This document shows positions 3,286 through 61,997 of a stretch of 64,000 bases of DNA, one piece after another; position 1 is the stretch's first letter, and each line of letters opens with the position of its first letter. Position numbers and translations under genes: made by a program. The stretch comes from Nannocystis bainbridge (GTDB lineage: Bacteria > Myxococcota_A > Polyangia > Nannocystales > Nannocystaceae), in NCBI RefSeq assembly GCF_028368995.1, contig NZ_JAQNDL010000005.1:544001-608000 (forward strand), read 5' to 3'. A model generated the notes under the pieces. That model saw only the letters and a list, made by a program, of their open reading frames with translations, was not told the DNA's origin and made no database searches.

Positions 3286-4875
3286 ATGCACCTGTCCTCG
3301 CGGACATACCAGGCGCCGCCCCGCGCCTGGCCGGGGGCTCGCGCGCCCGCAGCCCGGGCCGCCGCCCTGGCGGTCGCGCTCGGCGGCCCCGGCCTCGCCC
3401 GCGCCGAGCCGGCCGGCGGTCCGAACGGACATGTCCCCGGAGACATGCCGCATAGGCCAGGTTCGTTCGCACATGCCCACAAGGACATGTCCACGAAGCC
3501 AGCCTCGCCCGCCCAGGCCGCGGGCGCCAGCGAGGCCGCCGCGCTCGCCGGGCGCGGCGCCGGACCGCCCGCAGCCCCGCCGCCGTACCGCCTGCTGCGC
3601 GCCGACGAGGACTACCGCTACCTCCGCGACCCCCGGCGCCGCGTCGACTGGCTCGATCGCCTCAAGTACGTCCCGCTCGGCCCGCGCCGGCGGGTCGCGC
3701 TCGGCTTCGGCGGTGAGGCCCGCCAGCGCCTCGACAGCTTCCGCCACCTCGACTGGGGGGCAGGCCCGCCGCGCTCGCTGTCGTGGCTGCAGCGCTATAT
3801 GCTGCACGCCGAGCTGCGCGCCCCGAACTTCCGCGCCTTTGTCCAGCTCAAGAGCGCGCTCGAGCACGGCCGCCCCGGCGGCCCGCGGGACGTCGACCGC
3901 GACGACCTCGATTTCCACCAAGCCTTCGCCGAATTCGAGCACGAGCGCCCTGGCCTGCGCCTCGTCGTCCGCGCTGGCCGCCACGAGCTCGGATTCGGCT
4001 CGGGCCGGCTCGTGTCGCCGCGCGAGGGCCCCAACGTGCGCCGCAGCTTCGACGGCGTCTCGCTGATCGTCGCCGCCCGCCGCGTGCGCGCGCACCTGTT
4101 CATCACCCGCCCGGTCGCCACCCGCCCCGGCCTGTTCGACGACGGCTGGGAGCGCGGCCAGTGGTTCGCCGGCGCCCACCTCACCGTGCCCTCCCCGCTG
4201 CGCGGCGGCCAGGTCGACCTCTACGCGCTCTACCTCGACCGCCCCGGCGCCGTCTATCAGCGCGGCGCGGCCCACGAGCGGCGCCTGTCTCTCGGGACAC
4301 GTTGGTTCGGCGCCGCCGGCCGGCTCGACTACAACCTCGAGGCCGTGCTGCAGACCGGCACGTTCGGCGCCGCCCCGCTGCTCGCCTGGACCCTCGCCAG
4401 CGACACCGGCGTCGCCCTGCCGCTGCCGTGGCGCCCGCGGCTCGGCGTGCGCCTCGACGTCGCCTCCGGCGATCGCGGCGGCGATCGGCCGATGGGCACC
4501 TTCTCGCCGCTGTTCCCCAAGGGCTCCTACTTCGGCGAGGACGGCACTCTCGGCCCCGCCAACTTCTACGACCTCCACCCGATGCTGTCCCTCGCGCCGC
4601 TGCAGCGCCTGAGCCTCACCTTCGACTGGGTGTGCCTGTGGCGGTACAGCCGCGCCGACGGCGTCTACAACGTCCCCGGCGAGCCGCTCGTCGCCGACCT
4701 GAACCCCGAGCGCTTCATCGGTCACCGCGCCGGCGCCAACCTCGAGGTCGAGCTCGGCCGCCACATCGGCTTCGTCGTCACCCTCGGCCGGTTCTTCCGC
4801 GGCCCCTTCCTCGCCCGCGCCGGCCGCCCGCGCGACCTCGACTTCATCGCCACCTGGCTGACCCTCAAGTTCTGA
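3286..4875 (+). CDS. Alginate export family outer-membrane beta-barrel protein
   Basis: YRLLRADEDY...LKYVPL N-terminal motif, GRHELGFGSGRLVSPREGPNVRRSFDG, terminal Phe (LTLKF); start codon uncertain. Confidence 0.88.
   Translation: MHLSSRTYQAPPRAWPGARAPAARAAALAVALGGPGLARAEPAGGPNGHVPGDMPHRPGSFAHAHKDMSTKPASPAQAAGASEAAALAGRGAGPPAAPPPYRLLRADEDYRYLRDPRRRVDWLDRLKYVPLGPRRRVALGFGGEARQRLDSFRHLDWGAGPPRSLSWLQRYMLHAELRAPNFRAFVQLKSALEHGRPGGPRDVDRDDLDFHQAFAEFEHERPGLRLVVRAGRHELGFGSGRLVSPREGPNVRRSFDGVSLIVAARRVRAHLFITRPVATRPGLFDDGWERGQWFAGAHLTVPSPLRGGQVDLYALYLDRPGAVYQRGAAHERRLSLGTRWFGAAGRLDYNLEAVLQTGTFGAAPLLAWTLASDTGVALPLPWRPRLGVRLDVASGDRGGDRPMGTFSPLFPKGSYFGEDGTLGPANFYDLHPMLSLAPLQRLSLTFDWVCLWRYSRADGVYNVPGEPLVADLNPERFIGHRAGANLEVELGRHIGFVVTLGRFFRGPFLARAGRPRDLDFIATWLTLKF
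3290..3309. repeat. ACATGT-N8-ACATGT element copy
   Basis: ACCTGT-CCTCGCGG-ACATAC, 8 nt after the amidohydrolase stop. Confidence 0.65.
3421..3504. repeat. 14-bp-period array of the ACATGT element inside the porin ORF
   Basis: Hexamers at 3429 ACATGT, 3443 ACATGC, 3457 CCAGGT, 3471 ACATGC, 3485 ACATGT and 3499 CCAGCC. Confidence 0.8.
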
Positions 4876-4921
4876 CTCCTGTCATTTGCCAATCACACCA
4901 ATCACCCAAGGTCCATTCATC

Positions 4922-5578
4922 ATGCCCACCGCCACCGCCACGCCCGCCCGCTCGCTGCTCACCCCGCGCGACCACACCCTCATCCTCATCGATCACCAGC
5001 CGCAGATGGCCTTCGCCACCCGCTCGATCGACGCCGTCCTGCTGCGCAACAACGCCGCCATGGCCGCCCGCGCCGCCCGCATCTTCGAGGTCGCCACCAT
5101 CCTCACCACCGTCGCCGAGAAGACCTTCTCCGGCCCGATCTTCGCCGAGATCGCCGCCGCCCAGCCCGGGCACGACATCCTCGATCGCACCACCATGAAT
5201 TGCTGGGAGGACGCCAGCGTGGTCGCCCGCGTCAATCAGCTCGGCCACTCGCGGATCGTCATCGCCGGCCTGTGGACCTCCGTCTGCATCGTCGGCCCCG
5301 TGCTCTCCGCGCTCGAGCAGGGCTTCGAGGTCTACGTGATCACCGACGCTTGCGGCGACGTGTCCGAGGAGGCCCACGAGCGCGCCGTCACCCGCATGGT
5401 CCAGGCCGGCGCGCGCCCGCTGACGGCCCTGCAGTACCTGCTCGAGCTCCAGCGCGACTGGGCCCGCGGCGACACCTACGGCGCCGTCACCGGCCTCGCC
5501 GCCGAGCTGGGCGGCGCCTACGGCCTCGGGATCATCTACGCCAAGGCCATGTTCGGCGGCTCCGAAGGCGGCCACTAG
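4922..5578 (+). CDS. ycaC: YcaC-like isochorismatase-family cysteine hydrolase
   Basis: LIDHQPQM, DRTTMNCWED, AGLWTSVC (Asp/Arg/Cys triad) and ELQRDWAR. Confidence 0.92.
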   Translation: MPTATATPARSLLTPRDHTLILIDHQPQMAFATRSIDAVLLRNNAAMAARAARIFEVATILTTVAEKTFSGPIFAEIAAAQPGHDILDRTTMNCWEDASVVARVNQLGHSRIVIAGLWTSVCIVGPVLSALEQGFEVYVITDACGDVSEEAHERAVTRMVQAGARPLTALQYLLELQRDWARGDTYGAVTGLAAELGGAYGLGIIYAKAMFGGSEGGH

Positions 5579-5584
5579 GCGGCC

Positions 5585-10756: not shown

Positions 10757-10921
10757 GCGACCTGTCCGGAAGGACAAGTCGACCGCGCGGCTCCGTTCGC
10801 GGGGTCCCGCATCCCGCTGCGACCTGTCCCTACAGACAGGTCAGCCGCGCGGCTCCGTTCGCGGGGTCTCGCATCCCGCTGCGACCTGTCCCGAAGGACA
10901 AGTGCGCCGCGCGGCTCCGTT
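10757..10921. repeat. 62-bp tandem repeat (about 2.7 copies), each unit carrying an ACCTGT-CC-N4-(G/A)G-ACARGT palindrome
   Basis: Units start GCGACCTGTCC at 10757, 10819 and 10881, between the convergent sigma and LysR genes. Confidence 0.9.
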
Positions 10922-12479: not shown

Positions 12480-12513
12480 ACATGCCCGAAAGGACATGGT
12501 TGAAAGTTCATCC
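12480..12513. repeat. ACATGT element copy (3 units)
   Basis: ACATGC-CCGAAAGG-ACATGG-TTGAAAGT-TCATCC. Confidence 0.7.
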
Positions 12514-16065: not shown

Positions 16066-16085
16066 ACCTGTCCTCGGGGACATAT
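16066..16085. repeat. ACATGT element copy
   Basis: ACCTGT-CCTCGGGG-ACATAT preceded by GCGAATC. Confidence 0.75.
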
Positions 16086-17392: not shown

Positions 17393-20300
17393 ATGACCCA
17401 CTCCGTAGCGACCGCCGCCCTCGCGGACATGAAGTGGCTGCAACGCCTGGCCGCCGCCCTCGCACGCGACGCCGATGACGCCGCCGACCTCGTGCAGGAC
17501 ACACTCGTGGCTGCATGGTCCCACCCGCCGGCCGACGAGCACCAGCCGCTGCGTCCGTGGCTGGCGACCGTCCTTCGCAACCGCTTCCGCATGCAGCTGC
17601 GCACCCAGGCGCGCCGCGATCGGCGTGAGCAGTCCGGCGCGTCGACCGGGGCGACCACCACCGAGCCCGACCGGGAGTTGCTGCGCATCGAGCTGCTGCG
17701 GGTGCTCCTCCACGAGCTCGAGCAGCTCGCGCCCGAGGACCGGAAGATCCTGGTTCGTCGGTTCTTCCAGGGGGAGAGCGCGGCCGAGATCGCCCACGGG
17801 CTCGCCCTGCCCGCGGCGACCGTGCGCTCGCGCCTCCACCGCTCGCTCCAGCGGCTGCGTGCTCGACTGGACGAGCAATTCGGGGGGCGTTCGGCCTGGT
17901 GTGCCCTGGTCCTGCCCGCACCTCCCGGCGCCTCGATCCGACACGCGGGCCACAGCGGCACCATGAGCATCCCCGTGAAATTCATCCTCGGGACGGGCCT
18001 CGGTATCGTCGGTGTGGCCGGCTGGCTCGCGCTCACCGGACCATCCCCGGCACCTCCCTCCGCGGGCTCTACCGCCTCGCAACCCGTCCTGCAGCCACCG
18101 GTCGAAGGACGGGCGAGCACGGCCATCGAGCCGCGCCGTGCGGCTCGTGCAGCCATCTCCGGGTTCGTGCGCGATCGAGAGGGGGGCCCGGTCCCGGCCG
18201 CGACCGTGTGCGCGGCGTCCTCGTCGGAGGCGCTCGGCGCGTCCGAGCGGCGCGCGAGACCTTGCACGATCGCCGCGGCTGACGGCTCGTACCGCCTGGA
18301 CGGCCTGCTGGCAGCGCCGCATCGGGTCACCGCCAGCGCGCCGCATTTCATCCCGCAGGCGCATCGCAGCGGCACCGGGGCCCGGGCGCGCGAGCTGGTG
18401 CTCCTGCGCTCCGGGCAGGAAGAGCACGGCATCGACATCACGCTGCTGCCCGGCGGGGTCCAGCTCGTCGGCATCGTGCGCGACCTCGGCGGCGGTGAGG
18501 TCGATGGGGCGATCCTCGAAGCGGGCGACGCAGCCGGATACTCGGGCGCGGACGGGAGGTTCTCGCTGTGGGTCCCACCGGGCGAGGTGCTTGTGACAGC
18601 GACCGCGGAGGGCTATGCGGACAGGCAAGCCTCCGGACGCGCGCCGGGATTGACGCTAGAGATCCTCATGACTCCGGAGTCGGTGTTGCTCGGCCGGGTG
18701 GTGCGTGCCGATGATGGATCGCCGGTCGCAGGCGCCGAGGTGAGCGCGCTCGACGGCGGCTGGGGTCGCAAGGGGCCGTCGTTCACCGACGCGTCCGGGA
18801 ACTTCAGGATCGACGCGCTGCGACCCGGAGCCTACAAGGCGCGGGCGCTGCATGACGATGGTTATGGGGCCGGCGAGGCGCTGGTGGTGCTCGGCCTCGG
18901 TGAAACATCCGCGCCGGTCGAGGTTCGCATGCACCCGGCTTTCCTGGTCGAAGGGACAGTCGTGATCACTGGCGGAGGCAATTGCGATCGCGGCTCGGTC
19001 ATCCTCTCGGACCCCCACGGCCAGCGTCACTCGCCTATCGCCCCCGACGGCCGGGTGCGGGTCCCCGGGCTGTTGCCCGGGAGTTACGAGGTGGATGTCA
19101 GGTGCGAAGGGTTCGCATCGGCGCCGAGCTACCCGCCTCTGACGATCGCCGACCGCAGCCTCCGCGAGCTGCGGTGGGAGGTCCGACCGGGCCAGACGAT
19201 CCGCGGCACGGTCGTCACCACCACCCGTGGACCCTTCACTGCGATGACGGTGACGGCGAGCCCGCAAGCCGACCCGAGCCGCGCGAACGCGCAGTCGACC
19301 AGCGGACGCGCGCAGGCTGACAGCGCCGGACGATTCGAAGTCACGGGCCTGCTGCCGGGGCGCTATTCCATGCGCGTGTACGGCGGAGATCCACCGCAGC
19401 TCCTCGCGGGGCCCGAGGTCGAGGTTCGTGAGGGGCATGACCTCGACGACATCCGCATCGAGCTCCCCGCGGCCGGTGAGGTCCGCGGCGAGGTCCGCGA
19501 CTTCCACGGCCGAGCCATCCCCGGTGCGCGCGTCTTGCTGCGCGGACCGACCCACGCGCAGACGACCAGCCTCGATGACGGGAGCTTCCGTCTCTCCGGC
19601 ATCGCCCCCGGCGCGTACCAGGCGAGCGTGAACAAGAGCTACCAGCCGCTGCGCATGCACGGCGCAAACGACGGCGAGCAGCCGCGCGTGGCGGTCGAAG
19701 CCGGCGAGACCGCGGTCCTCGACCTCGTCGTCGAGGCCCCGGACGGGCGGATCTCCGGACGGGTCGTGGATGGCGACGCGGCAGCGCTCGACGACGTCTT
19801 CGTCGAGGTCTTGCGCGAGCCCGAGAGCGGCCCGCCCGGGGCCGCCTTGCGCGACATGCGGTGGAGCATGGACCGCGGCCTGCGGCCGCGCATGACCGAC
19901 AGCGAGGGGAGATTCGAGTTCGGCGAGCTGCCTGAAGGGACCTATGCGCTCGTGGCCCACCGGCGCGGCGGCGGCGAGGGAGTGCTCGAGCGCGTGGCGC
20001 TGGGCAGCGAGGTCATCGTCAAGATCGCCGCGCCGGGCTCGCTGGTCGGGCGGGTGCGCTTGCCCGGCGGCGGCGGGCCGGAGCGATTCTCGGTGGAGCT
20101 CCGCGATGTCGCGTCCGGCTACCAGGTGCGCGACAGCTTCTTCCGCACCGACGGGACGTTCGCGTTCCCGCAGGTGCCCGCGGGCGACTTCGTGGTCGCA
20201 GTCGAGGCGCCCGAGGGCGCGGGCAAGGCCGAGGTCACGCTGGCGACGGGCCAGCGCGCGCAGGTCGAGGTCGCGCTGGCGGGACGCGTGACCGTCCGCG

Positions 20301-20878
20301 GCCGCGTGCTCGACCTCGACACCGGCGCCCCGGTCCCGGGGATGCGCGTGAAGTTCGGCGCGGAGGGGAGAGAGGCGTTCATCAGCTCGGCCGACCACGT
20401 CGACGAGCGCTCCGTGACCGACGCGGAGGGCCGGTTCGAAGTCGCCGACGTGCCTGTCGGCCAGGCGACGGTGATCGTGACTGCCAGGAGCTTCGGAGCG
20501 ACGAGCGACCACGAGACCCTCTGGTCGCGCGCGCAGATCTCGAGCGGCAGCGTGGTCGAACTGGCGCCGCTCGAGGTGCTGCGACGCCGGCTTCAACCCG
20601 ATGACGAGGCCGGTGAGCTCGGAGTGACGATGCTTCGAGACGACCCAGCGGCGGGAGCGAAGGCGGCCCGGCCGACCGTCGCATTCGTGCAGCCTGGCGG
20701 CCCGGCGGCGCGCGCCGGCCTGCGGATCGGCGACGTGATCGTCGCCGTCGACGGCCATGACGTCACCGGCGACCACGTGCATCGCTTCGACGCCCTGACG
20801 CGAGTACCCGCGGGCACCGAGCTCCGCCTCGAGCTCGCGCGAGGAGACAGCGTCACGCTGATCGCCGCACGACGATGA
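17393..20878 (+). CDS. ECF sigma factor fused via a TM helix to carboxypeptidase-regulatory-like repeats and a C-terminal PDZ domain
   Basis: AADLVQDT...WLATVLRN (sigma2); SAAEIA...TVRSRLHR (sigma4); TM FILGTGLGIVGVAGWLAL; repeated GRV.D..G.PV.GA.V...TD..G.F; PDZ VQPGGPAARAGLRIGDVIVAVDG. Confidence 0.92.
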   Translation: MTHSVATAALADMKWLQRLAAALARDADDAADLVQDTLVAAWSHPPADEHQPLRPWLATVLRNRFRMQLRTQARRDRREQSGASTGATTTEPDRELLRIELLRVLLHELEQLAPEDRKILVRRFFQGESAAEIAHGLALPAATVRSRLHRSLQRLRARLDEQFGGRSAWCALVLPAPPGASIRHAGHSGTMSIPVKFILGTGLGIVGVAGWLALTGPSPAPPSAGSTASQPVLQPPVEGRASTAIEPRRAARAAISGFVRDREGGPVPAATVCAASSSEALGASERRARPCTIAAADGSYRLDGLLAAPHRVTASAPHFIPQAHRSGTGARARELVLLRSGQEEHGIDITLLPGGVQLVGIVRDLGGGEVDGAILEAGDAAGYSGADGRFSLWVPPGEVLVTATAEGYADRQASGRAPGLTLEILMTPESVLLGRVVRADDGSPVAGAEVSALDGGWGRKGPSFTDASGNFRIDALRPGAYKARALHDDGYGAGEALVVLGLGETSAPVEVRMHPAFLVEGTVVITGGGNCDRGSVILSDPHGQRHSPIAPDGRVRVPGLLPGSYEVDVRCEGFASAPSYPPLTIADRSLRELRWEVRPGQTIRGTVVTTTRGPFTAMTVTASPQADPSRANAQSTSGRAQADSAGRFEVTGLLPGRYSMRVYGGDPPQLLAGPEVEVREGHDLDDIRIELPAAGEVRGEVRDFHGRAIPGARVLLRGPTHAQTTSLDDGSFRLSGIAPGAYQASVNKSYQPLRMHGANDGEQPRVAVEAGETAVLDLVVEAPDGRISGRVVDGDAAALDDVFVEVLREPESGPPGAALRDMRWSMDRGLRPRMTDSEGRFEFGELPEGTYALVAHRRGGGEGVLERVALGSEVIVKIAAPGSLVGRVRLPGGGGPERFSVELRDVASGYQVRDSFFRTDGTFAFPQVPAGDFVVAVEAPEGAGKAEVTLATGQRAQVEVALAGRVTVRGRVLDLDTGAPVPGMRVKFGAEGREAFISSADHVDERSVTDAEGRFEVADVPVGQATVIVTARSFGATSDHETLWSRAQISSGSVVELAPLEVLRRRLQPDDEAGELGVTMLRDDPAAGAKAARPTVAFVQPGGPAARAGLRIGDVIVAVDGHDVTGDHVHRFDALTRVPAGTELRLELARGDSVTLIAARR

Positions 20879-30044: not shown

Positions 30045-30881
30045 ATGGTTCGTGCAATCCGAATACCCGCAATCGTCGCGCTGATCGGCGCACTCGCGGG
30101 CTGTCGCACCGACGCGGGGATCCAGGCACCCGCGCGACAGCCCGCGAACATGAAGGCCACGCCGGCGCCCGCCGCTGGCGACGAGCCTGTCTCTTCGACC
30201 ATGTGCAGCGATTCTGCGGCGTTCGTTCGCTACGACTGGATCCCCGGCAACGCCCTCCGCCTGCTCGCCGTGCGCTTGCAAGCGCCAGAATTGCCCCGAT
30301 CGCTCGCCACGCTCGCCGGGCTGCGCTCGGGGATCTTCGTCGACGCGCCGACGCGCGCCTTCATCGGCCGCTTCGAGGCCGAGCTCCCGGCGCTACCGAC
30401 AGCCCTCGAGGCGCTCGGGCTGCGTCTGGACGAGGTCGTGTTCGTGTCGACGACCACCGACCTCGAAGGCTGGGCGCTCCCTGACGGTTGTGACGGCGAC
30501 GGGCTTGCTCGACTCGCGGCGATGCACGGCCTCGCGGTGCGACACAGTGAAGCGCGTGAGCCGGTGGACTTCGTCGAGCTCCCGAACCTGGGGTACACCC
30601 TGCTGCGGTCGCGCCTGGGCGGCCCGCTGTGGCTCGCGCGCACCGAGGCCGCGGGCGGCTGGCGGGCCAACCTCGGCAGCATCGTGTTCACCGGCTTCAG
30701 CGAGTGGCTCGATGCCCGCAAAGTCGACACCCTGCGCCTGTCGACCTCCGACCCGCCGCCGGCCTCGGGCTACGGCGGCATCACCCAGCGCTTCTTCGCC
30801 ATCACCGGCAGCGACCTCGCGACGGCTTCGTCGCACTCGCTGGTCGCAGTGCCCGATCGGGCCCGCGATCCGAAGCCGTGA
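30045..30881 (+). CDS. Hypothetical lipoprotein
   Basis: MVRAIRIPAIVALIGALAGC lipobox; GGAG RBS. Confidence 0.7.
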   Translation: MVRAIRIPAIVALIGALAGCRTDAGIQAPARQPANMKATPAPAAGDEPVSSTMCSDSAAFVRYDWIPGNALRLLAVRLQAPELPRSLATLAGLRSGIFVDAPTRAFIGRFEAELPALPTALEALGLRLDEVVFVSTTTDLEGWALPDGCDGDGLARLAAMHGLAVRHSEAREPVDFVELPNLGYTLLRSRLGGPLWLARTEAAGGWRANLGSIVFTGFSEWLDARKVDTLRLSTSDPPPASGYGGITQRFFAITGSDLATASSHSLVAVPDRARDPKP

Positions 30882-32129: not shown

Positions 32130-32157
32130 GCGAACCCACATGTCCCGAAGTTCATGT
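32130..32157. repeat. ACATGT element copy
   Basis: GCGAACCC-ACATGT-CCCGAAGT-TCATGT. Confidence 0.65.
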
Positions 32158-32321
32158 GGCCCCCGCGCTCCTCCGGCCGATCGATCGAATCGTCATCTCC
32201 GCGGACTCATTCTCCGCGTTGACGCGTTCAGGTCGGCCCCGCGTTCGCGCCGCGCCTCGCGGTCGCGGCGTGGGTTGCTCGTATCCAATCGGTCGATCGG
32301 AGTAGAAAACAGATGGAGAAG

Positions 32322-34655
32322 ATGAAAACCCTCGCGGCTCGTCGCGCGTACCCGTGTGCGCTTGCGACGGCCCTGTACCTCCTGGCCACCGGATGTGACG
32401 GTGGCGTCGAAGTCTCGATCCACATTACCAGCCCTGCCCCCGAGCCTCCTTGTGGCGACGGCGAGATCGGGCCCGGCGAAGAATGCGACGAAGGGGCCGA
32501 AAACGGCGACGACGCCGCCTGCAAGCTCGATTGCAGCCTCAACGTCTGCGGCGACGGCCACGTCGGTCCGGGCGAGGCCTGCGACGACGGCGACGACGAC
32601 GACGACGACGAATGCAGCAACGCCTGCGCGTTCGGCCCGTCCTGCGGCGACGGCGTCGTCCAGCCTGGCGAGGCCTGCGACGACGGCAACGACATCGACG
32701 ACGACGCCTGCAACAACGCCTGCGTCCTCGCCACCTGCGGCGACGGCATCGTCCAGATCGGCGAGGCCTGCGACGACGGCAACGCCGTCGACACCGACCT
32801 CTGTACCAGCGCGTGCGCGCCCGCCAGCTGCGGCGACGGCTTCATCCAGCCTGGCGAGGGCTGCGACGACGGCGACGTCAACGGCGCGGGCGCAGCCTGT
32901 CGCGCCGACTGCCAGCCCAACGTCTGCGGCGACGGCGACATCGGCCCTGGCGAGGCCTGCGACAACGGCCCGAGCAACGCCGACCACGCCGCCTGCAAGC
33001 TCGACTGCAGCCTCAATTTCTGCGGTGACGGCCACGTCGGCCCGATGGAGGGCTGCGACGACGGCAACGACATCGACGACGACGCCTGCAGCGACGCCTG
33101 CGTGGCCGCCGAGTGCGGCGACGGCGTCGTCCAGGCCACCGAGGCCTGCGACGACGGCAACGGCGACGACACCGACGCCTGCACCAGCGCCTGCACCGCG
33201 GCCGCCTGCGGCGACGGCTTCGTCCAGGCCGGCGAGGCCTGCGACGACGGCAATGACAACAGCGACGGCGGCGATTGCACGCTCGCCTGCGCCGTCGCCA
33301 CCTGCGGAGACGGCCTCGTCCACGATCAGGGGGGCGGCGGCGAGCAGTGCGACGACGGCCTCGCCAACGGCCCCGGCCACGCCTGCCTCGCCGGTTGCCA
33401 GGCCAACGTCTGCGGCGACGGCGACCTCGGACCCGGCGAGGCCTGCGACGACGGCAACCTCGTCGGCGGCGACGGCTGCGGCCCGATGTGCACCCACGAG
33501 GCCTGCGGCAACGAGATCGTCGACGCCCTCGAGCAGTGCGACGACGGCATGGACGGCGACCCGGACGACGGCTGCACCGACGCGTGCATGCTCCCGAGCT
33601 GCGGCGACGGCGTCCTGCAGATCAACGCCGGCGAGCAGTGCGACGACGGCCCCGGCAACAGCGACGCCGGCGAATGCACCGCTGGGTGCACCGTCGCCAC
33701 CTGCGGCGACGGCCACGTCCAGCTCGCGGTCGAGCAGTGCGACGACGGCCCCGGCAACGCCAACACCGGCGCCTGCAAGCTCGACTGCACCCTCGGCTAC
33801 TGCGGCGACGGCTACGTCGGCCCCGGCGAGGCCTGCGACGACGCCGACGCCATCGACAACGACACCTGCAACAACGCGTGCAAGCTGCAGACCTGCGGCG
33901 ACGGCCTCAAGCAGGGCACCGAGCCGTGCGACCTCGGCCCGCTCAACAGCAACACCGGCGCGTGCACCCTCGCCTGCACCCTCGCCGTCTGCGGCGACGG
34001 CTTCGCCCACGAGGGCGTCGAGCCGTGCGACGACGGCAACGCCAACAACACCGACGCCTGCCTGATCGGCTGCGTCGCGGCCACCTGCGGCGACGGCTTC
34101 CTGCGCGCCGGCGTCGAGGCCTGCGACGACGGCAACAACCTCGACGGCGACATGTGCAACGCCGACTGCACCCGGCCCAAGCGCGTGTTCATCACCAGCA
34201 CCACCTACAGCGGCGCCATGGGCAATTACCTCGGCACAAAGAGCAGGTGCCAGACGCGCGCCACCGCGGCCGGCCTGACCGGCACCTGGGACGCCTGGAT
34301 CAGCGTCGCCAGCAGCAGCCCTGTGCTCCGCTTCGTCAAGTCGACGACGCATTACGCCCGCCTCGACGGGACCGAGATCGCCCAGTCGTGGGCCGACCTC
34401 ACTGACGGCAGCATCGACGCGCCGATCAACCTCGACGAATTCGGCGTCCTCGTGCCGACCGCCGGTGTGTGGACCGGCACCTCGGCCACCGGCACCCCGC
34501 TGTCCGACAACTGCAACAGTTGGTCCAACAACTTCTCCAGCGGCAAGGGATACGACGGCCGCAACGACGCCACCGACTTCAACTGGACCGCCCGCTCGCT
34601 CGGCCTGTCGAGCAACTGCTCGATCCTCCAGCGGCTGTACTGCTTCGAGCAGTGA
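32322..34655 (+). CDS. DUF4215 Cys-rich repeat lipoprotein with C-terminal DUF1554 (endostatin-like/CLec) domain, paralog 1
   Basis: Lipobox LATGC; 18 CGDG...E.CDDGN modules; RVFITS...VWTGT...RLYCFEQ. Confidence 0.92.
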   Translation: MKTLAARRAYPCALATALYLLATGCDGGVEVSIHITSPAPEPPCGDGEIGPGEECDEGAENGDDAACKLDCSLNVCGDGHVGPGEACDDGDDDDDDECSNACAFGPSCGDGVVQPGEACDDGNDIDDDACNNACVLATCGDGIVQIGEACDDGNAVDTDLCTSACAPASCGDGFIQPGEGCDDGDVNGAGAACRADCQPNVCGDGDIGPGEACDNGPSNADHAACKLDCSLNFCGDGHVGPMEGCDDGNDIDDDACSDACVAAECGDGVVQATEACDDGNGDDTDACTSACTAAACGDGFVQAGEACDDGNDNSDGGDCTLACAVATCGDGLVHDQGGGGEQCDDGLANGPGHACLAGCQANVCGDGDLGPGEACDDGNLVGGDGCGPMCTHEACGNEIVDALEQCDDGMDGDPDDGCTDACMLPSCGDGVLQINAGEQCDDGPGNSDAGECTAGCTVATCGDGHVQLAVEQCDDGPGNANTGACKLDCTLGYCGDGYVGPGEACDDADAIDNDTCNNACKLQTCGDGLKQGTEPCDLGPLNSNTGACTLACTLAVCGDGFAHEGVEPCDDGNANNTDACLIGCVAATCGDGFLRAGVEACDDGNNLDGDMCNADCTRPKRVFITSTTYSGAMGNYLGTKSRCQTRATAAGLTGTWDAWISVASSSPVLRFVKSTTHYARLDGTEIAQSWADLTDGSIDAPINLDEFGVLVPTAGVWTGTSATGTPLSDNCNSWSNNFSSGKGYDGRNDATDFNWTARSLGLSSNCSILQRLYCFEQ

Positions 34656-34695
34656 CCCTACCCGCGCCATCGACGACTCTGGAGATTTCACAGTC

Positions 34696-36951
34696 ATGAC
34701 CATGAAGCTTCACTCCGTTCATTCCCTGCGCGCGGGCCTGCTCGCGGCCGGGCTGCTGCTCGCGGCCTCCGGCTGCGACAGCGCCCTCGACGTCGCCGTC
34801 GACATCAACGTCTCCTCCGGCGGCTCCGCCGGCAGCGCCTGCGGCGACGACCAAATCGGCCCCGGCGAGCAATGCGACGACGGCCCCGAGAACGGCCCCG
34901 GCAAGGCCTGCCTCGCCGATTGCCAGACCAACGTCTGCGGCGACGGCGACATCGGCCCCGGCGAGCTGTGCGACGACGGCGACGACAACGGCTTCGACGC
35001 CCCCTGCACCGATCAATGCCAGCCGGCCGCCTGCGGCGACGGCTTCGTCGGCCCTGGCGAGACTTGCGACGACGGCAACGCCATCGACACCGACCTCTGC
35101 ACCTCCGCCTGTCTGCCCGCCGCCTGCGGCGACGGCTTCCATCAATCCGCGGTCGGCGAGCAATGCGACGACGGCGGCGCCAACGGCCCCTCCGGCGCAT
35201 GTCGCAGCAATTGCACGACCAACGTCTGCGGCGACGGCGACATCGGCCCCGGCGAATCATGCGACAACGGCCCGAGCAACGCCAATAACGCCGCCTGCAA
35301 GCTCGACTGCGCCCTCGGCGTGTGCGGCGACGGCCACGTCGGCCCGATGGAGGGCTGCGACGACGGCAACGCCATCGACCTCGACGCCTGCAGCAACACC
35401 TGCGTCGCCGCCACCTGCGGCGACGGCCTGGTCCAGGCCACCGAGGCCTGTGACGACGGCAACGCCAGCGACACCGACCTGTGCACCACCGCCTGCACCC
35501 CCGCCGCCTGCGGCGACGGCCACCTGCAGCCCGGCGAGGCCTGCGACGACGGCAATGACAACAGCAACGGCGGCGACTGCACCCTCGCCTGCGCGCTCGC
35601 GGCCTGCGGCGACGGCCTCCTCCACGCCCAGGGCGGCGGCGGCGAAGAATGCGACGAGGGCCTCGCCAATGGCCCCGGCCACGCCTGCCTCGCCGACTGT
35701 CAGCTCAACGTCTGCGGCGACGGCGACCTCGGCCCCGGCGAGGCCTGCGACGACGGCAACCTCACCGCCGGCGACGGCTGCAGCCCCGTATGCGCCCTCG
35801 AGGGCTGCGGCAACGGCGTCGTCGATCCGGGCGAGCCGTGCGACGACGGAGCCGACGGCGATCAGAACGACGGCTGCACCGACGCCTGCACCCTGCCGGT
35901 GTGCGGCGACGGCCTCGTCCAGCCGAGCATCGGCGAGCAGTGCGACGCCGGCCCGGGCAACAGCAACAGCGGCGCCTGCACCCTGACCTGCAAGCACGCC
36001 ACCTGCGGCGACGGCCACGTGCGGCTCGCGGTCGAACAGTGCGACCAGGGCGCGGCCAACGGCAACGACAAGCCGTGCAAGCTCGACTGCACCGGCGCCG
36101 TGTGTGGCGACGGCGTGGTCGGCCCCGGCGAGGCCTGCGACGACGCCGACGAGGACGACGACGACGAGTGCACCAGCGCGTGCAAGGCCATGACCTGCGG
36201 CGACGGCGAGGTCCAGGTCGGCGAGCAGTGCGACGACGGCCCCGCCAACGACAACCTCGGCGCCTGCACCCTGTTCTGCCTCGAGGCCAGCTGCGGCGAC
36301 GGCTTCCTCCAGACCGGCGAGGCCTGCGACGACGGTGACGGCGACGACGGCGACGCCTGCCGCACCAACTGCGAGGCCGCCACCTGCGGCGACGGCGTGG
36401 TGTGGGTCGGCCACGAGCAGTGCGACGACGCCAACGACGACGACACCGACGCTTGCAAGTCCGACTGCACCGTGCCGAAGCGCGTGTTCGTCACCGCCGT
36501 CACCTACAACGGCAACCTCGGCGGCCTCGTCGGCGGCAAGGCCAAGTGCCAGGCCCGCGCCGACGCGGCCGACCTCGGCGGCACCTGGGACGCGTGGTTC
36601 GGCGTCACCAACAGCTCTCCGGCGACGCGCTTCGTCAAGGCGGCCGGCGGCTATCGTCGCCTCGACGGCGTGGTCGTGGCCGACAATTGGGCCGACCTGA
36701 TCGACGGCAGCCTCGACGCGCCCATCAACGTCAACGAGTTCGGCGGCCTCGCCGGCGCCCAGGGCGTGTGGACCGGCACCCTGCAGACCGGCGTGGTGAC
36801 CGGCTCCCGCTGCAACGACTGGACCTACGGCGCGGCCGAGCTGTGGGGCGCGTACGAGGGTCGCACCAACCTCGTCGACGTCGGCTGGACCTACCTCGGG
36901 GCGCAGGTCCTTTGCAACCAGCAGCGCCGCCTCTACTGCTTCGAACAATGA
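34696..36951 (+). CDS. DUF4215-DUF1554 lipoprotein, paralog 2
   Basis: GGAG RBS; AASGC; 17 modules; RVFVTA...RLYCFEQ. Confidence 0.92.
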
Positions 36952-36983
36952 CCCGCGCGACCCAGAATCACAGGAGAATCGAC

Positions 36984-39341
36984 ATGACCCACTCTTTCAT
37001 TCGTACTACTGGTATTCGCGCGGGCCTGTTCACCGGCGCCCTGCTGCTCGCGGCCGCCGGCTGCGACGCCGACGTCGGCGTCAACCTCGACGTCGAGCCC
37101 CCGAACCTCACCGGCGGCGGCAGCGGCGGCGGCAACCTCAGCGTGTGCGGCGACGGCCAGCTCGGCTACGGCGAGGAGTGCGACCTCGGCGTCGCCAACG
37201 GCCCCGGCAGCGCGTGTCGCACCAATTGCCTGCTCAACGTCTGCGGCGACCACGAGGTCGGCGCCTACGAGGAGTGCGACCTCGGCCAGGCCAACGGCGA
37301 CGACAAGGCCTGCACCGCCGAGTGTCTGCTCGCCACCTGCGGCGACGGCCTGCTCGGCCCCGGCGAGCCGTGCGACGACGGCAACGGCGTCGACGGCGAC
37401 GCCTGCACCAACGCCTGCACCCTGCCCGACTGCGGCGACGGCATCATCCAGGTGCTCGAGGCCTGCGACGACGGCAACACCGTCGACGACGACGCCTGCA
37501 GCAACGTCTGCGTCGCGGCCGTGTGCGGCGACGGCGACCTGCAGCCCGGCGCCGGCGAGCAGTGCGACAACGGCCCGGCCAACGGCCCCGCCGCCGCCTG
37601 TCGCGCCAATTGTCTGCTCAACACCTGCGGTGACGGCAACCTCGGCCCCGGCGAGGCCTGCGACAACGGGGTCAACAACGCCGACCACGCCGCCTGCAAG
37701 CTCGATTGCACGATCGGCGTGTGCGGCGACGGCCACGTCGGGCCGATGGAGGGCTGCGACGACGGCAACGCCGTCAACAACGACGCCTGCTCCAACGCGT
37801 GCAAGCTCCCGACCTGCGGCGACGCCATCGTCCAGGCCACCGAGGCCTGCGACGACGGCAACAAGTCCAACACCGACAACTGCACCAACACCTGCACGGC
37901 CAAGGCCTGCGGCGACGGCTACTCCCAGCCCGGCGAGAGCTGCGACCTGGGCGCCAACAACAGCAACGGCAACATCTGCACGCTCAGCTGCAAGTACGCG
38001 ACCTGCGGCGACGGCCTCCTCTACAACCAGGGCAGCGGCACCGAGCAGTGCGACAACGGCCCCAACAACGGCGCCAACAAGGCCTGCCTCGCCAACTGCA
38101 AGATCAATATCTGCGGCAACGGCGATCGCGGCCCCGGCGAGGCCTGCGACGACGGCAACCTCGTCAGCGGCGACGGCTGCAGCTCGCTGTGCGCGATCGA
38201 GGCCTGCGGCAATGGCATCGTCGATCAGGGCGAGCAGTGCGACGACGGCATGGATCACGATCAGGACGACGGGTGCACCGACCTGTGCCGCTTCCCCGCG
38301 TGCGGCGACGGCTTCACCCAGGCGAGCCTCGGCGAGACCTGCGACGCCGCCAATGTCAACAGCGACAGCGGCGCGTGCACGCTGAGCTGCAAGCTCGCGA
38401 CCTGCGGCGACGGCCACCTGCAGCTCGGCGTCGAGCAGTGCGACGGCGGCGACGACAACGGCGAGGACCAGCCCTGCAAGCCCGACTGCACCGGCGGCAT
38501 CTGCGGCGACGGCTTCGTCTCACCGACCGAGCCGTGCGACGACGCCAACCTCGTCAACGAGGACGGCTGCACCAACGTCTGCAAGCTGCCGACCTGCGGC
38601 GACGGCTTCCTGCAGGCCGGCGAGCCGTGCGACGAGGGCGAGGCCAACGACAACGGCGGCACCTGCACCCTCGCGTGCACCCTGCCCGCCTGCGGCGACG
38701 GCTTCCTTCAGGCCGGCGAGGCCTGCGACGACGGCAACCTCGTGCAGACCGACGACTGCCTCAACAACTGCCAGCTGCCGGTGTGCGGCGACGGCTTCGT
38801 GTGGGCCGGCCACGAGACCTGCGAGGACCTCAACACCGCCGAGGCCGACGGCTGCTTCGCCTGCACCGCCGCCCGGCGCGTGTTCGTCACCAGCACCTTC
38901 TACGACGGCAACCTCGGCGGCCTCGCCGGCGCCGCCGCGAAGTGCCAGGAGCGCGCCCTCGCGGCCGGCCTCGGCGGCACCTGGGACGTCTGGCTCAGCA
39001 CCGACGAGAGCACCCCGCTGGCCCGCCTGGTGCCGTCCCTCGCCGGCTACCGGCGGCGCGACAGCGTCATCGTCGCCAACACGTTCGCCGACCTGACCGA
39101 CGGCACCGTCGACATCGCCATCAACGTGACCGAGACCCTGTCCTCGGTCGCGGCCTCGGACGTGTGGACCGGCACCACCTCCGCCGGCCTCCTGGCGACC
39201 CACCACTGCTCCAACTGGACGAGCAACAACGCCGCCCTGTCGGGCCGGATCGGCCGCACCAGCCTGACCAACCTCGGTTGGACCGACTCGACGGTCGGCG
39301 CCTGCAACACCGCCCGTCGCCTGTACTGCGTCGAGCTCTGA
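36984..39341 (+). CDS. DUF4215-DUF1554 lipoprotein, paralog 3
   Basis: AGGAG RBS; AAAGC; 18 modules; RVFVTS...RLYCVEL. Confidence 0.92.
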   Translation: MTHSFIRTTGIRAGLFTGALLLAAAGCDADVGVNLDVEPPNLTGGGSGGGNLSVCGDGQLGYGEECDLGVANGPGSACRTNCLLNVCGDHEVGAYEECDLGQANGDDKACTAECLLATCGDGLLGPGEPCDDGNGVDGDACTNACTLPDCGDGIIQVLEACDDGNTVDDDACSNVCVAAVCGDGDLQPGAGEQCDNGPANGPAAACRANCLLNTCGDGNLGPGEACDNGVNNADHAACKLDCTIGVCGDGHVGPMEGCDDGNAVNNDACSNACKLPTCGDAIVQATEACDDGNKSNTDNCTNTCTAKACGDGYSQPGESCDLGANNSNGNICTLSCKYATCGDGLLYNQGSGTEQCDNGPNNGANKACLANCKINICGNGDRGPGEACDDGNLVSGDGCSSLCAIEACGNGIVDQGEQCDDGMDHDQDDGCTDLCRFPACGDGFTQASLGETCDAANVNSDSGACTLSCKLATCGDGHLQLGVEQCDGGDDNGEDQPCKPDCTGGICGDGFVSPTEPCDDANLVNEDGCTNVCKLPTCGDGFLQAGEPCDEGEANDNGGTCTLACTLPACGDGFLQAGEACDDGNLVQTDDCLNNCQLPVCGDGFVWAGHETCEDLNTAEADGCFACTAARRVFVTSTFYDGNLGGLAGAAAKCQERALAAGLGGTWDVWLSTDESTPLARLVPSLAGYRRRDSVIVANTFADLTDGTVDIAINVTETLSSVAASDVWTGTTSAGLLATHHCSNWTSNNAALSGRIGRTSLTNLGWTDSTVGACNTARRLYCVEL

Positions 39342-46246: not shown

Positions 46247-46266
46247 ACATGTCCTCGAGGACATGT
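46247..46266. repeat. ACATGT element, perfect 20-bp palindrome
   Basis: ACATGTCCTCGAGGACATGT, 9 nt after the M23 stop codon. Confidence 0.9.
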
Positions 46267-46286
46267 CGATGAAAACGTGATCCCAT

Positions 46287-47508: not shown

Positions 47509-47528
47509 ACCTGTCCTTCAGGGCAGGT
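47509..47528. repeat. ACATGT element copy
   Basis: ACCTGT-CCTTCAGG-GCAGGT, starting on the first base after the TAG stop. Confidence 0.8.
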
Positions 47529-51291: not shown

Positions 51292-51311
51292 GCCTGCTCA
51301 AGCGGACAGGT
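51292..51311. repeat. Degenerate ACATGT element copy
   Basis: GCCTGC-TCAAGCGG-ACAGGT in a divergent intergenic region. Confidence 0.45.
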
Positions 51312-52015: not shown

Positions 52016-52091
52016 AGATGGCCACAAGGACATGTCCTTGTGGCCATTTCTCTTCGCACATGTCCTCGTAGGCATGTCCCACGGGCCATCT
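52016..52091. repeat. Six-unit 14-bp-period ACATGT array including a perfect 30-bp palindrome
   Basis: Hexamers at 52016, 52030, 52044, 52058, 52072 and 52086; ATGGCCACAAGGACATGTCCTTGTGGCCAT at 52018-52047. Confidence 0.9.
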
Positions 52092-57234: not shown

Positions 57235-57268
57235 CCCTGGCCCTCGGGACATGTCCCCGGGGACATGT
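57235..57268. repeat. ACATGT element with perfect 20-bp palindrome
   Basis: CCCTGG-CCCTCGGG-ACATGT-CCCCGGGG-ACATGT just after the PAS gene stop. Confidence 0.9.
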
Positions 57269-58268: not shown

Positions 58269-58288
58269 ACATGTCTCATGAGACAGCT
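58269..58288. repeat. ACATGT element copy
   Basis: ACATGT-CTCATGAG-ACAGCT. Confidence 0.65.
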
Positions 58289-58324
58289 TTGCGTAGCTTC
58301 CCCCGCTCGCCCCGATCGGGCACG

Positions 58325-59866: not shown

Positions 59867-59879
59867 CGACCCGCGGGTT

Positions 59880-60776: not shown

Positions 60777-60862
60777 TGTTGAGCCTCGTTCATCGACCCT
60801 TCCAGCTCCGGCTATCTACTCGACCGCGCCGGCGATGCCTAGCCTGCGGGTCCAGGAGCCTC

Positions 60863-61921
60863 ATGCCCGAAATCCGAGCCTACGCCGCGCAATCGCCGAC
60901 CAGCGGCCTCGCGCCGACCACCATCGTCCGCCGCGACCCGCGCCCCGATGACGTCGTCATCGAAGTCGCCTACTGCGGGATCTGCCACACCGACCTGTCC
61001 CAGACCCGCGACGAGTGGGGCGGCGCCACCTACCCGATGGTGCCTGGCCACGAGATCACCGGCATCGTGCGCGCCGTCGGCAGCGCCGTCACCGACCTCC
61101 CCGTCGGCGCCCGCGTCGGCGTCGGCTGCTTCGTCGACGGCGGCTGCTCCCGCGGCCACGGCGACCGCGAGCACGAGCACCAGGACCTCGACAACCTCGT
61201 GCTCACCTACAACGGCCGCGAGCACGACGGCGCCCCGACCTACGGCGGCTACGCCCAGACCATCGTGGTGAAGCGCGCCTACGTGCTCGAGATCCCCGAC
61301 GCCTTGCCGCTCGACGCCGCCGCCCCGCTGCTGTGCGCCGGCATCACCCTCTACTCCCCGCTCGTCCACTGGCGGGCCGGACCGGGCCGCAAGGTCGCCA
61401 TCGTCGGCCTCGGCGGCCTCGGCCACCTCGGCGTCAAGCTGGCGCGCGCCTTCGGGGCCGAGGTCACCGTCCTCAGCCGCGGCGAGGGCAAGCGGGCCGA
61501 CGCCCTCGCGCTCGGCGCCCACGACTACCACGCCACCTCCGACCCGCAGACCTTCGCCCGCCTCGCCGGCCGGTTCGACCTCGTCATCATCACCGTCGGC
61601 GCCACGCTCGACTGGAACGCCTACCTGCGGCTCGTGCGACGCGAGGGCGCCCTCGTCCTGGTCGGCATGCCCGACGCGCCCGGCGAGGTCAGCGGCTTCG
61701 AGCTGCTGTCGCAGCGCCGCTCGCTGGCCGGCTCCGGCATCGGCGGCATCCCCGAGACCGCGCGCATGCTCGAGTTCTGCGCCCGCCACGGCATCACCGC
61801 CGACATCGAGACCGTCGCCATCCAGGACGTCGCCGCCGCCTACGCCCGCGTCGACCGCAGCGACGTCCGCTACCGCTTCGTCATCGACATGAAGACGCTG
61901 AGCCGCGACCCCGGCGTTTGA
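60863..61921 (+). CDS. NADP-dependent zinc alcohol dehydrogenase (CAD/AdhC/YahK-like)
   Basis: CGICHTD, PGHE, APLLCAG, GLGGLG, DVRYRFVID; AGGAG RBS. Confidence 0.95.
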   Translation: MPEIRAYAAQSPTSGLAPTTIVRRDPRPDDVVIEVAYCGICHTDLSQTRDEWGGATYPMVPGHEITGIVRAVGSAVTDLPVGARVGVGCFVDGGCSRGHGDREHEHQDLDNLVLTYNGREHDGAPTYGGYAQTIVVKRAYVLEIPDALPLDAAAPLLCAGITLYSPLVHWRAGPGRKVAIVGLGGLGHLGVKLARAFGAEVTVLSRGEGKRADALALGAHDYHATSDPQTFARLAGRFDLVIITVGATLDWNAYLRLVRREGALVLVGMPDAPGEVSGFELLSQRRSLAGSGIGGIPETARMLEFCARHGITADIETVAIQDVAAAYARVDRSDVRYRFVIDMKTLSRDPGV

Positions 61922-61997
61922 ACCTGCGCGAACGGACATGCCCTTTCAGGCATGTCCGTTCCATCATGTCCGTTCGGACCTGTCCTTGCGGACTATC
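61922..61997. repeat. Six-unit 14-bp-period ACATGT array
   Basis: ACCTGC(61922) ACATGC(61936) GCATGT(61950) TCATGT(61964) ACCTGT(61978) ACTATC(61992); fills most of the gap between convergent stops. Confidence 0.9.

Follow-up and report, generated by a model that had tools for sequence, protein, structure and literature searches.

The stretch of Nannocystis DNA analysed here (the window, 64 kb) carries a dispersed palindrome that tiles along the DNA, and this observation was confirmed: a re-scan of the window gave 19 matches at three or fewer mismatches where 0.16 were expected, and 0 of 100 shuffles reached 19. The palindromes at 46247 and 57249 were both perfect, as had been stated, and the copies at 58269 and 51292 were recovered by weight matrix with scores of 20.8 and 12.7. 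Five copies had been placed 0-9 nt past stop codons, and the gene calls predicted in this analysis, on which these distances rest, agree. A single unit (3290..3309) lies 8 nt past an amidohydrolase stop (3281) and overlaps the predicted start of the next ORF; a perfect unit with a weak second unit (46247..46280) lies 9 nt past a stop; a single unit (47509..47528) follows at 0 nt, immediately 3' of an isochorismatase/SnoaL stop; a two-unit chain, the second unit perfect (57235..57268), begins 5 nt past the stop of a PAS gene; and four units with a weak fifth (61922..61997) start at 0 nt, immediately 3' of an alcohol-dehydrogenase stop and convergent with a DUF4403 gene. At this last junction an array is present in 5/5 sister genomes, one or two units longer in two of them. 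Another single unit (58269..58288) is 34 nt past a stop.

Convergent gaps hold a two-unit chain (12480..12513) and a five-unit chain (52016..52091), while single units occupy a divergent gap (16066..16085) and a co-directional gap (32138..32157). The weak unit at 51292..51311 sits in a divergent promoter region, and 5/5 sister genomes have exactly the same 14-bp core as the window. Three further weak single units were absent from the first list: 4283..4302 (score 15.4) within ORF 3286-4875, 19435..19454 (14.5) within ORF 17393-20878, and 30185..30204 (15.8) shortly 5' of a predicted start. Two points of detail were corrected. Between the convergent sigma-70 and LysR genes, the three single units (10760..10903, with starts at 10760, 10822 and 10884) are 62 bp apart and off the 14-bp phase, and form a local repeat instead of one 14-bp lattice; and the copies at 3421-3504 belong to a six-unit phased chain (3415..3504) within the coding frame of a predicted alginate-export-family ORF (3286-4875, + strand), in its N-terminal linker.

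The element was originally described as ACATGT-CC-N4-GG-ACATGT; the palindrome is real, but the true unit is the 14-bp TGTCC-N4-GGACA, ACATGT being the junction of tiled units. In chains genome-wide, CATG is found at the terminal hexamers in 20-44% and at the internal hexamers in 65-92%. The genome contains about 10,000 units in 4,755 phased chains, amounting to 1.6% of its DNA. The predicted genome-wide enrichment was borne out by 5,905 units at three or fewer mismatches and, on contigs C4 and C5 at two or fewer mismatches, by 372 matches against a mean of 0.47 and a maximum of 17 for 60 permutations of the palindrome that keep its base composition. The anticipated spacing was also found, with genome-wide peaks at 14/28/42/56/70 bp (1672/775/503/222/77) while no distance up to 200 bp that is off the 14-bp series counts more than 30. 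Within the unit the spacer is strictly 4 bp (1,987; the other gap lengths from 0 to 11 gave 16 or fewer each), and motif position G2 is near-invariant (A 38, C 3, T 9 versus 3,974). The central 4 nt, said to vary freely, do not do so wholly: CGAA/TTCG are the commonest, and A/T spacer bases at four-fold sites are kept in 16/19 cases. The spacers of neighbouring units are nearly independent of each other, and therefore the units are not slippage copies. Chain length peaks at 5-6 units, and this holds also in gaps of 160-250 bp (80, 60, 18, 30, 47, 36, 7, 2). Genome-wide, no conserved flank or tetranucleotide tag was found around the units, and the intergenic DNA of the studied genome yielded no second abundant spaced palindrome. 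A 14-bp step corresponds to a turn of ~120 degrees per dimer, which would favour a protein spiral along the DNA over a one-face wrap.

Genome-wide, the element occupies 806/1,316 convergent gaps (61%), 981/3,710 tandem gaps and 212/1,447 divergent gaps, with site positions peaking just 3' of stop codons. The proposal that most copies follow stops or lie between convergent genes thus holds as an enrichment, but predicted CDS contain 1,831 of the genome's 4,755 chains. Coding matches number 1,722; the count is 62-86 once synonymous codons are shuffled and 3-5 once codon order is. Coding copies are present in all three frames. Consensus A/T at four-fold sites is kept in 46/49 cases within units versus 390/1,537 outside them; synonymous sites in coding units are under purifying selection. 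Compared with orthologs, 16/25 coding sites are ungapped and 9/25 fall within alignment gaps. In orthologous convergent gaps of two species, units are present in both in 13/18, in neither in 4 and in one only in 1; these arrays are kept while their spacer sequences turn over, and unit number differs between species in 14-bp steps. The 32-kb ribosomal/rpoBC cluster has merely 2 single sites, and an expression proxy, which ranks HU genes low, is weakly linked to sites (rho 0.10). Low constraint alone would also yield a gene-end bias.

The element had been called lineage-specific, and it is: motif-rich genomes make up 23/73 of those in the family, all in three Nannocystaceae genera that form one clade in an RpoB tree (100/99). 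Samples of 30-140 kb, which are small, showed no gene-end dialect motifs in five motif-poor genera. Viral contigs gave 8 exact matches, by estimate about the chance level for a collection of that size, and matches in Mesorhizobium (14/49) were rejected as a coincidental match to a different perfect inverted repeat. We found no published account of the element in Nannocystis in the REP/palindrome literature, with subscription papers and supplements outside the scope of the search. Rho was found in 0/73 family genomes and, in other families of the class, in 0/7 (f19) and 3/22 (f10); Rho can thus be lost where the element is lacking, being absent as well from the family's 50 motif-poor genomes and from other families. 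The genome does have mfd, by motif match.

The original prediction that this is no ordinary regulon, and rather the site of a tiling DNA-binding protein, is upheld by the strict 4-bp spacer, the mostly uncompensated mismatches and a candidate XRE protein, and a double-stranded-DNA-binding protein very probably reads the element. The candidate is encoded outside the window at C3:1091654-1092055 (+), with a paralog, also outside it, at C1:4266693-4267073 (-). It was chosen by eye among 127 short, soluble proteins whose genes have a chain close to the promoter, a set that leaves out longer proteins, response regulators and genes lacking such a chain. XRE was found in 20/23 motif-rich genomes and 0/50 others, the three motif-rich genomes without a match being just 60-67% complete, and given that the motif-rich genera are one clade, the co-occurrence of motif and XRE counts as a single event. 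Amplification is seen at two stages, with one XRE gene accompanying about 100 perfect sites and two accompanying up to about 2,000: there are two copies in 11/11 Nannocystis and one in the low-density genera. Among six control DNA-binding proteins, one, a MarR, fits the same profile, and more completely (23/23); in a panel of 5 genomes a third XRE occurs in 5/5, and two TetR, one ArsR and one HTH_11 protein misfit the profile.

The protein has an HTH_3 domain (PF01381, E 5.8e-13) with a five-helix fold; a basic, proline-rich insert precedes the HTH, and a pair of helices lies at the C terminus. Its recognition region is nearly invariant. Its closest fold neighbours are C-proteins, SinR and P22 c2, all weak (E about 1e-3). 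Invariant T53 and K63 have, by our mapping, the same offsets from helix 3 as C.Esp1396I T36 and R46, which read GTC in a complex with two dimers on about opposite faces, according to the accessible part of PMC3351150. A PDB sequence search gave no match, the ESM Atlas gave generic HTH_3 clusters only, and a four-copy complex prediction scored 0.24 against a mark of 0.42. Some distant relatives (P0035, P0036) have a comparable helix, and no relative outside the clade was found with DNA context. Judged by eye from their translations, the neighbouring genes resemble a TonB-type receptor and a peptidase, and look unrelated to restriction-modification. At 28/30 XRE loci, including 9/9 in the sister genera, the 300 bp upstream contain a site with a score of 9.5 or more, over baselines of 6-9% in the sister genera and 21% in the studied genome. 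A phased triple (at least 5/6 TG/CA ends) stands 5' of the XRE ribosome-binding site at 5/5 loci of genus g4, against 0/135 other upstream regions of g2 and g4 and 7/499 in the studied genome. Nannocystis loci have a degenerate self-array (5/6 ends or more in 3/20 loci, 4 or more in 12/20), and g2 loci have single sites only (phased triple 0/4). On these grounds we consider, with moderate confidence, that the clade-specific XRE is the putative reader of TGTCC-N4-GGACA.

We tentatively propose, at somewhat below an even chance, that TGTCC-N4-GGACA serves as the operator of a cooperatively tiling XRE dimer that would block uncoupled and antisense transcription at gene ends; given a reader, the chance that such a roadblock is its main job seems to us about even. 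The unit would be the operator of a homodimeric protein whose dimers bind cooperatively every 14 bp into short spirals, preferably of 5-6 dimers (76-90 bp). XRE would repress its own gene via a low-affinity phased array, and in Nannocystis, with the gene duplicated, weak selection would have amplified the site about ten-fold at gene ends and in coding sequence. Where GC is high, Rho absent and U-tract terminators few, the arrays might act as a roadblock or insulator working in both directions: a ribosome following close behind RNA polymerase would push it through, whereas polymerase beyond a stop codon or running antisense would stall at the array and be released by Mfd. Both ribosome push and Mfd release are described for roadblocks to polymerase in the available portion of PMC10310618. 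Hairpin+U terminators occur in 117/694 convergent gaps with arrays versus 31/289 without, so that gaps with arrays are not poorer in them. Single sites 0-10 nt past a stop are awkwardly placed for a roadblock.

The same XRE could instead serve chromosome architecture or topology, as a nucleoid protein marking resident DNA, and might stiffen it, bridge it or relieve supercoils at convergent genes; we regard this as unlikely, if worth keeping in view. Sites are present on all contigs and in about 1,068/8,188 predicted genes, the longest site-free stretches are for the most part islands of low GC and weak skew, convergent gaps have the highest occupancy, EspR and BldD are also among the XRE fold neighbours, and HIP1 has been linked to nucleoid structure (PMC5861425, in the part accessible). 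Against this, even spacing is unsupported (gap CV 1.6, with coding sites clustering at short range), site depletion near gene 3' ends is seen with or without a downstream array, and there is no ori or ter bias; density is similar on both sides of both GC-skew switches, and the analogy with matS, SlmA and Noc sites fails for distribution. One 30-kb site gap, among many such gaps, lies near the GC-skew switch of C3.

A real rival as reader, though an improbable one, is the clade-specific MarR (G000:C1:3992406-3992810, -) instead of XRE. Close orthologs (58-100% identity) are in 23/23 motif-rich genomes, with only 36-44% homologs in 10/50 others, all three genera have the same recognition helix, and a 14-bp site scoring at least 11.5 lies 157-175 bp upstream in 18/23 loci. 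That site, however, is single, unphased and well upstream of the -35 box, and MarR is single-copy in 10/11 Nannocystis. Moreover, 6/7 distant homologs examined have a different promoter palindrome, TGYR-N2-YRCA, mostly TGTATATACA; 6/7 orthologs of genus g4 keep TGCATCTRCA; and this 10-bp word has undergone an amplification of its own in two genomes of g2, with counts of 770 and 787 compared with 0-44 in the others.

LexA was considered given that a similar 5-4-5 LexA box is known from Verrucomicrobia, and was rejected: no chain occurs at lexA or at either recA promoter, and the lexA promoter has a different box, which resembles the Myxococcus type. We found no Verrucomicrobia LexA literature carrying this string, and PMC8565304, in the part accessible, did not give it.

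It is quite improbable that the element is a self-DNA mark for uptake or recombination, under DUS/USS- or HIP1-like drive and read by a competence protein or methyltransferase. The element resembles uptake sequences in its frequency of roughly one unit per kb, in having coding copies that change the encoded proteins, and in being depleted in islands and enriched past stops, but recA, rpoB and rpoC, as core genes, have no chain, and to our knowledge a dyad with fixed spacer, seamless tiling and a preferred size of 5-6 units are not features of DUS/USS. Very improbable, too, is an RNA element in which each unit would fold as a hairpin, its loop 4 nt long, and either stop transcription or protect the 3' ends of mRNAs. 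The 3'-end bias, a modest compensatory excess (157 vs 105, 40 vs 16, 133 vs 99) and, at two positions out of the three, more U-G-compatible than C-A changes (310 vs 207, 250 vs 197, 225 vs 228) are as such an element would have them, yet these asymmetries could stem from transcription-linked mutation or quasi-palindrome correction. The loop is strictly 4 nt, most changes are uncompensated, the U-tract is lacking (7.8% vs 8.3% in the control), the strand bias of TTCG vs CGAA is small (88 vs 69), the element is found in all coding frames, and an Rfam search of the window gave no match. An intrinsic terminator was likewise rejected, with no U-tract after the hairpin and little strand specificity. 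Finally, a REP/REPIN-like selfish element spread by a transposase, as first suggested with a RAYT in mind, would agree with extragenic palindromes past stops, 14-bp steps in unit number and the 9/25 gapped coding sites, but is largely refuted by the absence of Y1_Tnp/RAYT matches (0 in the studied genome, 90% complete; the control rings in 6/14), the lack of flank or tag, the differing spacers of neighbouring and orthologous units, and coding copies that are mostly substitutions under purifying selection.

A broader and rather doubtful proposal is that, once Rho had been lost, an ordinary autoregulated XRE repressor became a genome-wide, sequence-encoded form of punctuation, with a parallel amplification of the MarR operator in a sister genus. 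About 10,000 selected sites would then serve as templates for filaments of 5-6 dimers at gene ends and for single blocks within genes, and uncoupled and antisense transcription would be ended through Mfd. How transcription ends in GC-rich bacteria without Rho is an open question, one that PMC13289151 poses for cyanobacteria in its accessible part, and a protein-lattice roadblock, if true, would answer it in a new way. Palindromes of very high copy number, HIP1 among them, have resisted explanation, in part because no protein is known to read them by sequence; Nannocystis, a genus in culture, has a selected motif of 10,000 sites and a small candidate reader, so that binding and function are directly testable in vitro and in E. 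coli, and three genera display amplification at two stages together with a second amplified operator.

REP/BIME/REPIN sequences with RAYT are lineage-specific extragenic palindromes, present in hundreds to thousands past stops and in convergent gaps with variable unit number. The Nannocystis element is likewise enriched past stops and in convergent gaps and varies in unit number, but has no RAYT and no tag, its copies are non-clonal, and many are intragenic by substitution under selection. DUS/USS occur at about one per kb, lie within genes where they reshape proteins, are common past stops, and are non-palindromic, untiled and read outside the cytoplasm; the Nannocystis element is like them in density and placement, but is palindromic and tiled. 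The sites of MatP (matS), SlmA (SBS) and Noc (NBS) are short palindromes with dimeric readers and a chromosome-level role, in tens of copies restricted to or excluded from the terminus, unlike the thousands of Nannocystis sites with no terminus pattern. MetJ binds MET boxes, seamless head-to-tail palindromes, in cooperative short arrays; the seamless palindromic tiling is alike, but the MET box is 8 bp, read by a ribbon-helix-helix protein in a small promoter regulon, whereas the Nannocystis unit is 14 bp, genome-wide and has an HTH candidate. C.Esp1396I, C.AhdI and XRE repressors share with the candidate the XRE fold and, as is proposed for it, an autoregulatory array, and in C-proteins two dimers occupy tandem operators, with T and R/K readout of GTC and TG at the ends (PMC3351150, same part); they have few operators beside a restriction-modification locus, compared with about 10,000 sites here and chains that reach 6 or more units. 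LacI, CodY, CcpA and Fis form roadblocks in which bound protein stalls polymerase, Mfd releases it and the ribosome pushes (PMC10310618, as above); these are single loci or a side effect, whereas a dedicated genome-wide system is proposed for Nannocystis. HIP1 (GCGATCGC) is, like the Nannocystis element, a hyper-abundant palindrome in and between ORFs that is maintained by selection (PMC5861425, same part), and its cyanobacterial hosts are also without Rho (PMC13289151, same part). HIP1-type elements are marked by a contiguous octamer that orphan methyltransferases recognize and by a 10-90-kb periodicity; the Nannocystis element shows their over-representation in and between ORFs kept by selection, but is bipartite with a fixed 4-bp spacer and a spacing known at short range, and differs further in its phased chains, its bias to gene 3' ends and its candidate HTH reader.

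The window contains 19 matches to the 20-mer ACATGT-CC-N4-GG-ACATGT at three or fewer mismatches, where 0.16 would be expected by chance, and the enrichment and 14-bp periodicity claimed in the original prediction were both borne out across the host genome (G000; 11.05 Mb, ~71.5% GC, 5 contigs). At ≤3 mismatches G000 holds 5,905 units, with inter-unit spacing peaks at multiples of 14, and a weight matrix derived from these units returned 7,890 sites scoring ≥16, compared with ~50 in an order-5 Markov simulation. Linking sites in 14-bp steps gave 4,755 chains comprising 10,255 units, or 1.56% of the genome. The unit originally proposed is indeed palindromic, but the hexamers at the ends of chains conserve only their inner half; therefore ACATGT is not the end of a unit but the junction of two, and the unit proper is the 14-bp TGTCC-N4-GGACA.

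The spacer is 4 bp long (1,987 perfect sites, as against no more than 16 at any other gap in the range 0-11), and the TG/CA ends are almost invariant, with one-sided changes tolerated at inner positions. Compensatory changes at positions 3-5 were just 1.3-2.5-fold over expectation, with no excess at positions 1-2, and no U-tract was found at the units. The spacers of adjacent units are nearly independent in sequence. Chains of one to seven units number 2,263, 1,172, 509, 251, 327, 177 and 40, with 16 longer, a bimodal distribution, and given that the peak at 5-6 units persists in long gaps, available space does not set that peak.

All gene-context counts derive from our dicodon gene caller (8,188 genes) rather than curated annotation. 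Chains occupy 806/1,316 convergent, 981/3,710 co-directional and 212/1,447 divergent gaps of G000, and most gap chains start within ~20 nt of a stop codon, in agreement with the placement after stops and between convergent genes noticed in the window. An analogy to chromosome-organizing sites such as matS or Noc boxes had also been drawn; mapping against ori and ter in G000 revealed no pattern, nor were the sites evenly spaced across the genome. The 32-kb ribosomal/rpoBC cluster contains two single sites.

Chains also lie inside 1,068 genes, with all three reading frames represented. Coding matches number 1,722, far above the 62-86 obtained after synonymous shuffling and the 3-5 after shuffling codon order, and therefore both codon choice and protein sequence have been bent toward the motif. 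When G000 was compared with 400 kb from a second species (G001), the consensus A/T at four-fold sites was kept at 46/49 positions within units versus 390/1,537 outside, and 37 of 47 coding units stayed strong. Of the 25 coding sites that could be scored in alignments with orthologs of other genera, 16 were ungapped and 9 fell in gaps; a further 8 sites lay beyond the aligned regions.

The longest motif-free stretches of G000 are mostly low-GC islands, and motif density could mark how long DNA has resided in the genome. Two large, low-GC, weak-skew and nearly motif-free regions (C1:1098870-1257510 and C1:533338-583723) are candidates for recently acquired islands. An operon judged by eye to be imuA-imuB-dnaE2-like (C3:1245066-1250849; record L117) is unusually site-dense, with 8 chains, coding arrays among them, at C3:1247794-1250979. 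At C3:1096000-1098000 (record L116) at least 13 chains of 1-2 units are packed into 2 kb in which our caller placed no gene. Genome-wide, 111 chains overlap a predicted start whose codon is the ATG of an ACATGT junction; these starts may be real or may be artefacts of the gene caller.

Of 18 orthologous convergent gaps compared between G000 and G001, 13 contained units in both species, commonly ~5 in each, with unrelated spacer sequences. Similarly, the array at the adh/DUF4403 junction of the window was present in 5/5 sisters, two of which carry 1-2 additional units. A conserved lattice with turnover of sequence resembles a protein footprint more than it does a copied element. A weak unit in a divergent promoter region of the window (51292-51311) has a core identical across six species and probably represents a regulatory use of the site.

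Across the family (73 genomes), counts of the perfect 14-mer per genome are 114-2,090 in Nannocystis (n=11), 87-169 in the sister genus g2 (n=5), 67-696 in the sister genus g4 (n=7) and 0-20 in the remaining 50. A 16-bp version, sought in 151 genomes of the class, was enriched only in G000 and the three g4 genomes, and 32 of 49 records matching a two-unit pattern are labelled Nannocystis. In an RpoB tree of 30 genomes, rooted at the midpoint only, the three genera form one clade (100/99). Mesorhizobium records (L025, L027, L029, L033, L037, L051, L053, L056, L062, L063, L066, L067, L069 and L071) were set aside, as they share a perfect inverted repeat of ~44 bp unrelated to TGTCC-N4-GGACA; several copies lie within coding regions that appear by eye to be cobalamin-type or ABC-transporter-like. 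The window also has an unrelated excess of TGCA-N8-TGCA, the likely source of which is the Cys-rich DUF4215 repeats; three tandem ORFs of ~750-785 aa each occupy 32313-39341, the first with such repeats.

A chain lies close to the start of 127 short soluble proteins, and from these we picked by eye, as a candidate reader, an XRE-family protein (PF01381; XRE-A, C3:1091654-1092055, +, 4 kb upstream of the dense run at C3:1096000-1098000), which has a paralog 74% identical (XRE-B, C1:4266693-4267073, -). All 11 Nannocystis genomes carry two copies, and one copy is present in 4/5 g2 and 5/7 g4 genomes, those without a match being only 60-67% complete; none was found in the 50 motif-poor family genomes. 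Identity across genera is 68-78%, versus a median protein identity of 51-55%, and the HTH region is almost invariant. The structural model (pLDDT 86) has C-proteins, SinR, P22 c2, ClgR and BldD as neighbours, all of them weak matches with none at an E of 0.001 or better. A site scoring ≥9.5 lies within 300 bp upstream at 28/30 loci, including 9/9 in g2 and g4, where the baseline is 6-9%. Furthermore, an alignable three-unit array lies immediately 5' of the RBS. In g4, whose arrays played no part in choosing the candidate, this array has 5-6 of 6 TG/CA ends at 5/5 loci, compared with 0/135 other g2/g4 upstream regions and 7/499 in G000. The Nannocystis version is weaker (≥5 ends at 3/20 loci, ≥4 at 12/20), and 0/4 g2 loci have the array. 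C.Esp1396I reads GTC through T36 and R46, with two dimers on approximately opposite faces (PMC3351150); by our mapping the invariant T53 and K63 of the XRE protein would match these offsets, lending weak support. A wider uncharacterized XRE subfamily (P0036-P0109; ~120 aa, a basic insert before the HTH) has differing recognition helices, and its hosts might carry other amplified operators.

Rho was detected in 0/73 family genomes with TIGR00767 and 0/23 with PF07497, and in 71/151 genomes of the class sample (0/7, 3/22, 2/10 and 7/20 in families f19, f10, f7 and f15); the relevant passages of a Rho survey (PMC11347177) name Haliangium ochraceum as a member of the Myxococcota without Rho and do not mention Nannocystis. 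By our own simple rule, hairpin+U terminators are present in 148/983 convergent gaps of G000. Speculatively, a palindromic protein block would halt polymerase from either direction, and the ribosome would push each polymerase some way into the array before leaving; passages of PMC10310618 describe a trailing ribosome making polymerase more termination-resistant and Mfd freeing stalled polymerase. Together these would explain tolerance within genes, concentration after stops and long convergent arrays. Against such a roadblock, the 50 motif-poor relatives also lack detected Rho, arrays do not take the place of hairpin+U terminators where these exist (117/694 convergent gaps with arrays versus 31/289 without), the association with an expression proxy is weak, and low constraint alone would favour gene ends. 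The main rival is an architectural role for the same XRE protein.

Given that the three genera are one clade and thus a single event, we used a panel of five genomes to profile six further DNA-binding proteins. The distributions of five do not fit the motif, and a clade-specific MarR (C1:3992406-3992810, -) also fits the reader profile. Its close orthologs occur in 23/23 motif-rich genomes, 10/50 others have distant ones only, and a single 14-bp site lies 157-175 bp upstream of marR at 18/23 loci. However, 6/7 distant homologs examined have a different word, TGYR-N2-YRCA, at the promoter (mostly TGTATATACA), and a word of this type is retained with 6/7 g4 orthologs. The marR locus (L229, L237-L259) has a conserved near-consensus sigma-70-type promoter, whose -35 box lies ~75 bp downstream of the conserved 14-bp site. 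Perfect TGTA-N2-TACA copies number 770 and 787 in two g2 genomes (G011, G057) versus 0-44 in 49 others, two further g2 genomes having 41-44. In G011 and G057 TGYA-N2-TRCA is a highly iterated second palindrome, mostly within genes (records L072-L074, L112-L115), and it matches the promoter word of the MarR homologs; 140 kb of sequence held 90 sites at gap 2 and no more than 11 at any other gap. The simplest reading would be a pair of clade-specific repressors that recognize separate operators, with the marR promoter additionally guarded by the XRE site. No homolog outside the clade with DNA context for an independent pairing test was found.

In the open literature searched, we found no published description of the element. 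It is similar to HIP1 and to uptake sequences in abundance and selection, to REP in position, and to C-protein and MetJ operators in tiling. Yet the tests that define each of these families are ones that it fails or is unable to pass. The lattice of operator-like palindromes is real, under selection and specific to one clade; it is akin to the highly iterated palindromes and has, in the XRE protein, a concrete and testable candidate reader.
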